Shown here piece by piece: positions 3,255-3,280 of a DNA stretch of 7,813 nt. Made by a program: the position numbers and the translations under genes. Under the pieces are notes generated by a model. That model was not told where the DNA came from, made no database searches, and was given only the letters and a program-made list of their open reading frames with translations. Positions within the stretch are counted from its first letter, which is position 1. The number at the start of each line of letters is the position of its first letter. This DNA is from a virus (lineage: Duplodnaviria > Heunggongvirae > Uroviricota > Caudoviricetes): positions 1-7,813 of IMG/VR virus record IMGVR_UViG_2529292715_000014. One strand, 5' to 3'.

Positions 3255-3280
3255 AGAAACGGCCCCTCGGTTTACAGGAA
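3255..3280. other. gix-like recombination crossover site, only the inner half-site recognisable
   Basis: GGTTTACAGGAA at 3269-3280 is the reverse complement of the Hin/Gin-family half-site TTCCTGTAAACC, with a 2-bp core TC at 3267-3268. The outer 12 bp (3255-3266, AGAAACGGCCCC) shows no dyad symmetry with it. Confidence 0.55.

Follow-up and report, generated by a model that had tools for sequence, protein, structure and literature searches.

At positions 3255–3280 of the window (the whole stretch of 7,813 nucleotides analysed here), the sequence resembles a crossover site of a DNA invertase. Sites of this family have two inverted 12-bp half-sites around a 2-bp core (12-2-12), and here one half is recognizable. 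The locus therefore raises three questions: which site this was, how the second half-site was lost, and whether the adjoining segment should still be regarded as invertible. The whole window is contained without any difference, in reverse orientation, in the 20.5-kb locus L007, which belongs to Shigella flexneri serotype 3b strain SFL1520 (CP032513.1).

Among phage records, SfMu is the best match to positions 2950–3700 of the window (100% coverage and 91.5% identity, in two pieces). It is followed by Mu, D108 and Mu-like Yersinia phages. In complete E. coli genomes, the matches overlie Mom, Com, a protein of the recombinase family and a phage tail-fibre protein. The genes stand in the order S-U-U'-S'-gin-com-mom, the identity to SfMu is 91.5–95% across the region, and the Pfam content of the called genes agrees. 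By these features, the window is assigned as the right end of an SfMu-like (Mu-like) transposable prophage inserted in dpiA (Table 1). The attR end starts at position 1971 with TGAAGCGGCG..., and the attL end starts at L007 8007 with TGTATTGATTCAC.... A 5-bp target duplication (CTGGG/CCCAG) is located at 1966–1970 beside attR, and CCCAG flanks both ends inside dpiA. Because the same 5 bp is found at both ends, the prophage entered dpiA by bona fide Mu transposition. The insertion signature spans 1966–1975 of the window and 8002–8011 of L007, and the attL and attR ends are intact.

Two further features of this part of the window were observed. The com and mom reading frames (2086–2938, minus strand) still have the full length found in SfMu, in contrast to the heavy damage elsewhere in the prophage. 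In the host sequence, dpiB has a frameshift near a GGGG run at about 1473–1476, so that its frame ends at 1527 after 508 codons, and another frame carries on with the conserved C-terminus GVSTRADEPGEHGIGLYLIASYVTRCGG.... As dpiB is frameshifted and dpiA is interrupted by the Mu insertion, the whole DpiBA two-component system is inactivated.

Table 1. Features located in the window (positions are those of the window).
Feature	Position	Strand	Remark
dpiB (citA), frameshifted	1–1527		
dpiA, 5' part	1627–1970		
Mu-type right end attR	1971–2085	.	TGAAGCGGCGCACG...
mom	2086–2811	-	ORF of 241 codons, same length as in the SfMu annotation
com	2732–2920	-	Zn_ribbon_Com
gin pseudogene (DNA invertase)	3014–3211	-	GTG start at 3211; internal deletion and nonsense codon
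gixR remnant	3255–3280	.	outer 12 bp no longer a half-site; core TC; inner half-site intact
11-bp deletion junction	3264–3265	.	ATTATCTAAAA absent compared with SfMu; no microhomology, unique placement
S'v, silent variable tail-fibre part, proximal piece	3269–4055	+	about 92% identical to SfMu
IS1, 768 bp, in S'v	4056–4823	.	8-bp target duplication TATTCCCG
S'v, distal piece	4824–5065	+	extra frameshift near 4975–4990
U', tail-fibre assembly gene	5068–5595	+	Caudo_TAP
U, tail-fibre assembly gene	5624–6157	-	Caudo_TAP
Sv remnant	6160–6613	-	99.4% identical to SfMu; ends about 490 bp short of the SfMu gixL position
IS3-family element, 1264 bp in full	6614–7813	-	64 bp more beyond the window

The 26-bp stretch consists of AGAAACGGCCCC (3255–3266), the core TC (3267–3268) and GGTTTACAGGAA (3269–3280). 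The sequence CCTCGGTTTACAGGAA, which covers the inner half and the core, is identical to gixR of Mu and SfMu at 16 of 16 positions. The homology to Mu-type relatives runs for hundreds of bases on either side of the site, and the match of the inner half and core is therefore not a matter of chance. The stretch is collinear with gixR of SfMu and Mu, and lies at the edge of the tail-fibre segment beside the invertase gene. By descent and position, the site is identified as gixR, the gin-side crossover site of the G segment, of an SfMu-type Muvirus. In SfMu (KP010268) and Mu (AF083977), gixR likewise lies at the G-segment edge, with the start of gin on one side and S'v on the other. The flanks on both sides are identical, as are the core and the inner half-site, and the order gin-com-mom-attR is alike. 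The window differs from both phages in that ATTATCTAAAA is absent, the adjoining gin has become a pseudogene, and this region of the genome has no gixL.

The outer 12 bp agrees with the mirrored inner half at exactly 2 of the 12 positions. Thus, the preliminary description was right in that the inner 12 bp and the core match a gix half-site and that the outer 12 bp mirrors it at about two positions. Compared with eight functional half-sites of Mu, SfMu, E. coli UTI89 and P7, the outer 12 bp agrees at 2–4 of 12 positions, whereas the functional halves from the same sources agree with the Mu inner half at 6–9 of 12. A match of 2–4 positions is about chance level, as would be given by a random 12-mer, and falls outside the functional range. 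In the outer half, TTAT(C/T)(C/T)AAAACC is found in Mu, in SfMu, in the E. coli prophages of 22KM0354, 08_3323 and UTI89, and at loci L005 and L008. The A-rich block (A/T)A(A/T)ACC beside the core is kept in every functional half examined, and is absent from the outer half of the window. The 12-2-12 layout attributed to functional sites holds, but their description as near-palindromic is slightly overstated, since the two halves of the Mu site agree with each other at 7 of 12 positions and form a loose palindrome only. In the window, the inner half alone is present. As the defining 12-2-12 architecture is lacking, the stretch is filed as a gix-site remnant and not as a site.

According to the alignment with SfMu and Mu, 11 bp is missing from the window at the junction 3264|3265. 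The SfMu sequence reads ...CAGAAACGGCC ATTATCTAAAA CCTCGGTTTACAGGAA..., and the window reads ...CAGAAACGGCC CCTCGGTTTACAGGAA.... The half-site on the gin side, TTATCTAAAACC, has thereby lost 10 of its 12 bp, one flanking base is gone as well, and only the CC by the core remains. Of the two endpoints of the deletion, one is located within the site at a distance of 2 bp from the core, and the second is located 1 bp beyond the site. In that alignment, the 65 bases to the left of the gap and the 41 bases to the right are identical to SfMu, and the collinearity continues into gin. The sequence AGAAACGGCC, which now occupies the position of the outer half, corresponds to the native SfMu flank just outside gixR and was drawn in by the deletion. 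In the preliminary description, the site was suggested to contain the endpoint of a rearrangement or deletion, and a deletion is indeed seen there when the window is aligned with SfMu, Mu and the intact prophages of E. coli. That description had also placed the loss of identity to Mu about 3 nt outside the core; in fact 2 nt (CC) is kept, and the identity resumes right after the 11-bp gap. No reference gix site having AGAAACGGCCCC as its outer half was found, and the claim that a single half-site is retained stands.

A single recognizable half-site, with the identity to the reference lost near the core, is also what would remain if Gin had recombined gixR with a secondary quasi-site and so joined foreign DNA outside the core. 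Cin is known to recombine at quasi-cix sites. However, the outer flank in the window is not foreign. From 3264 leftwards through the 5' end of gin it is native and identical to SfMu, shifted by 11 bp. The break is located 2 bp outside the core and not at the staggered core cut, and recombination with the other TC in the deleted stretch, where there is only one, would yield a 9-bp deletion instead of 11 bp. A hybrid joint is thus very unlikely. From the alignment, we assign the lesion as a tiny internal deletion; it is neither a hybrid joint nor a large rearrangement.

The bases beside the gap differ from the terminal bases of the deleted stretch, so that the placement of the gap is unique and no microhomology is present. 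Since the endpoints lie off the core and the junction has neither a repeat nor microhomology, the 11-bp loss is best explained as a small deletion that occurred spontaneously while the prophage decayed, and it bears no mark of a recombinase. Slippage between short repeats was considered separately and is ruled out, because both of the flanking CC pairs are kept and the junction is without microhomology. Scans for sigma-70 promoters around the site, performed to see if a promoter element of gin was also lost with the 11 bp, detected no consensus promoter in either SfMu or the window.

Identical U protein is encoded in ten listed places, and six of them have the dpiA context (L003, L004, L006, L007, L010 and L011). 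L010 and L011 are the NCTC assemblies UGYT01 and UGYQ01. All six dpiA-inserted copies examined have both the 11-bp deletion and a 384-bp deletion in gin. Over the 1.46 kb from attR to S'v, the dpiA-inserted copies differ from the window at 1–5 positions. These copies bear on a possible sequencing or assembly artefact as the cause of the 11-bp gap. Small indels do occur in long-read assemblies, and nothing more specific speaks for an artefact. The identical gap is found in six independent assemblies from different projects, including that of SFL1520, which is a hybrid MinION and MiSeq assembly (PMC6424224). We regard an artefact as extremely unlikely.

The deletion was then sought in other genomes by using a query of 80 bases across the junction against 5,426 complete E. 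coli genomes. Full-length matches were obtained in 222 of them, all at 80–90% identity. Among the matches listed with full coverage, 78–80 bases of the query cover 88–91 bases of the record. The identity band and the longer record spans indicate that all 222 matches include the 11 bp, and the deleted form was detected in none of the 5,426 genomes with this query. The exact junction CAGAAACGGCCCCTCGGTTTACAGGAAAC gave no match in the GTDB species representatives, which carries little weight as one genome per species is present there. The 11-bp deletion arose once, in the ancestor of the dpiA-inserted remnant.

The invertase gene beside the site is also damaged. Inside the gin gene, 384 bp has been deleted in frame (junction 3048|3049), and most of the catalytic and DNA-binding domains are gone with it. 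In addition, CAA is changed to TAA at 3125–3127. This stop codon is found in the strain of the window only; in the other five copies, the changed base is still C. As the deletion is common to all six copies, the stop codon is younger than the deletion. Owing to these two lesions, an intact serine invertase cognate to the site is not encoded in cis. At the 5' end of gin, 165 bp is kept, with two positions different from Mu. In invertase systems, a Fis-dependent enhancer is located inside the 5' part of the invertase gene, and we take the recombinational enhancer of Mu to lie within these 165 bp.

For the partner site, three mismatch-tolerant scans were performed: the 26-bp site with up to 9 mismatches, the inner half plus core with up to 2, and the palindromic core AAACCNNGGTTT with up to 1. 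No second gix-like site was detected in the window, nor elsewhere in the 20.5 kb of L007. These results agree with the earlier statement that the second site is not in the window. The partner was also suggested to be sought beyond the IS3-family element; it does not lie there either, and gixL has been deleted from the genome. In SfMu, gixL corresponds to L002 4756–4781, and the Sv remnant matches SfMu only to L002 4265. The far side of the IS3-family element, which is presumably IS600-like, adjoins no more than a 274-bp piece of the Mu left end (TGTATTGATTCACTTGAAG...), behind which come the 3' part of dpiA and dcuC, in this order. Because Sv is cut short and the IS3-family element adjoins the 274-bp attL piece, gixL and Sc are gone, as is about 31 kb of the prophage. 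As the gixL-bearing region is deleted, an inverted partner site on the same molecule is absent.

With gin and gixL described, the possibility of a natural variant that is still functional with one degenerate half-site can be weighed. Perfect palindromes are not found among these sites: within the Mu site the halves share 7 of 12 positions, and between the Mu inner half and the halves of P7 the agreement is 6–9 of 12. The hixR site of Salmonella, with a weak outer half, is a comparable case. The outer half in the window, however, does not reach this level against any functional half (2–4 of 12), and lacks the A-rich block. Moreover, the 11 bp is present in all intact relatives, and the site in the window has neither a partner nor an intact gin. 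We therefore hold a functional variant to be highly unlikely, and the reading of gixR as a site damaged by deletion is retained.

The copies in L010 and L011 are less decayed. They keep c, ner and a truncated A gene, and have no IS1 in S'v, and gixL is already gone from both. According to the absence of IS1 from these two copies, the IS1 insertion is the more recent event. Their IS3-family element is located 262 bp further along Sv (about 9282 in L010), and its far-side neighbour is the truncated A gene, whereas attL takes this place in the copy of the window. The different positions of the element and the different far-side joints suggest successive IS-adjacent deletions in the prophage. Besides IS1, the C-terminus of S'v has a frameshift relative to SfMu S' (Table 1). 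The orientation is uniform in the six assemblies with the remnant, S'v being located beside gin.

The cix sites of P7 and P1 are of the same 12-2-12 family, as are the hix and pix sites. Like the site in the window, they are located at the edges of inversion segments carrying tail-fibre or flagellin genes. In phage P7, the annotated cixL is CAATCCTAAACC-TT-GGTTTAAGAGAA, and the annotated cixR is TTCTCTTAAACC-AA-GGTATTGGATAA. The surviving half in the window, TTCCTGTAAACC, agrees with the P7 half-sites at 6–9 of 12 positions, including the AAACC block. The cix, hix and pix sites have two recognizable halves and recombine, whereas the site in the window has a single half.

Remnants of SfMu in several serotypes of S. 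flexneri are mentioned in the accessible text of Jakhetia and Verma (2015; PMC4406740). The same text notes a point mutation beside the core of one SfMu repeat, which possibly impairs inversion. In SfMu gixL (L002 4756–4781), C is found in place of G directly by the core (GACG against GAGG, TTCCTGTAAACCGACGTTTTGGATAA), and this variant corresponds to the change noted there. The remnant inserted in dpiA, the 11-bp deletion of gixR and the 384-bp deletion of gin are not described in that part of the paper.

A different Mu-like prophage was observed at L009 (CP026877.1, 8599–12605), with its G segment in the opposite orientation. Between U and com there is only about 570 bp, and no resolvase gene is called. 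A single gix site remains, at 12084–12109, and it is of the GACG variant. In this prophage, gixR and gin appear to have been lost independently.

Invertases of the Gin/Hin/Cin family bind as dimers, one to every 26-bp site, and two dimers form a synapse at the Fis-bound enhancer. Each of the four subunits then cuts one strand at the 2-bp core (PMC3575834, PMC3798978). For the site in the window, we propose that an SfMu-like transposable prophage entered dpiA in an ancestor of several Shigella lineages. Its gin-side half-site was reduced by the 11-bp deletion to 2 of 12 bp. As one subunit of the invertase sits on each half-site, at most a monomer would be expected to bind with a single half-site left, so that neither double-strand cleavage nor synapsis would follow. 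From the sequence and what is known of the family, we infer that the function of the site was lost. Three further lesions, each of which is disabling alone, are present: gin is a pseudogene, gixL is deleted, and both variable parts of the tail fibre are disrupted. Owing to the lesions of the site, gin, gixL and the tail-fibre genes, the former G segment is frozen with S'v beside gin. On this evidence, it is very probable that the site is gixR of a decayed SfMu-like prophage in dpiA, that its half-site was lost by the 11-bp deletion, and that it is now an inert relic.

An invertase encoded elsewhere in the genome could bind the surviving half-site. In a more specific form, the half-site and the enhancer region might bind a Pin-type invertase of Shigella in trans with a local effect, or the deletion might have been selected in an active prophage to lock the tail-fibre orientation of the G segment. 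We consider this pair of readings improbable. If the locking reading is true, independent losses of gixR and gin elsewhere, such as that at L009, would fit a recurrent pattern.

For the relic reading, the lesion is ordinary prophage decay, and represents nothing new in kind and no new type of element. The IS-driven decay of Shigella genomes is well known. The lesion of the site, the lesion of the invertase, the loss of the partner and the IS insertions together fit this decay. The 11-bp and 384-bp deletions, being common to the dpiA-inserted copies, could act as lineage markers of this remnant. For annotation, the 26-bp stretch should be given as a gixR remnant and gin as a pseudogene, and invertibility should not be ascribed to the segment. 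The finding itself matters little, and its value is that of a precise record of how one phase-variation switch died in a prophage remnant of Shigella.
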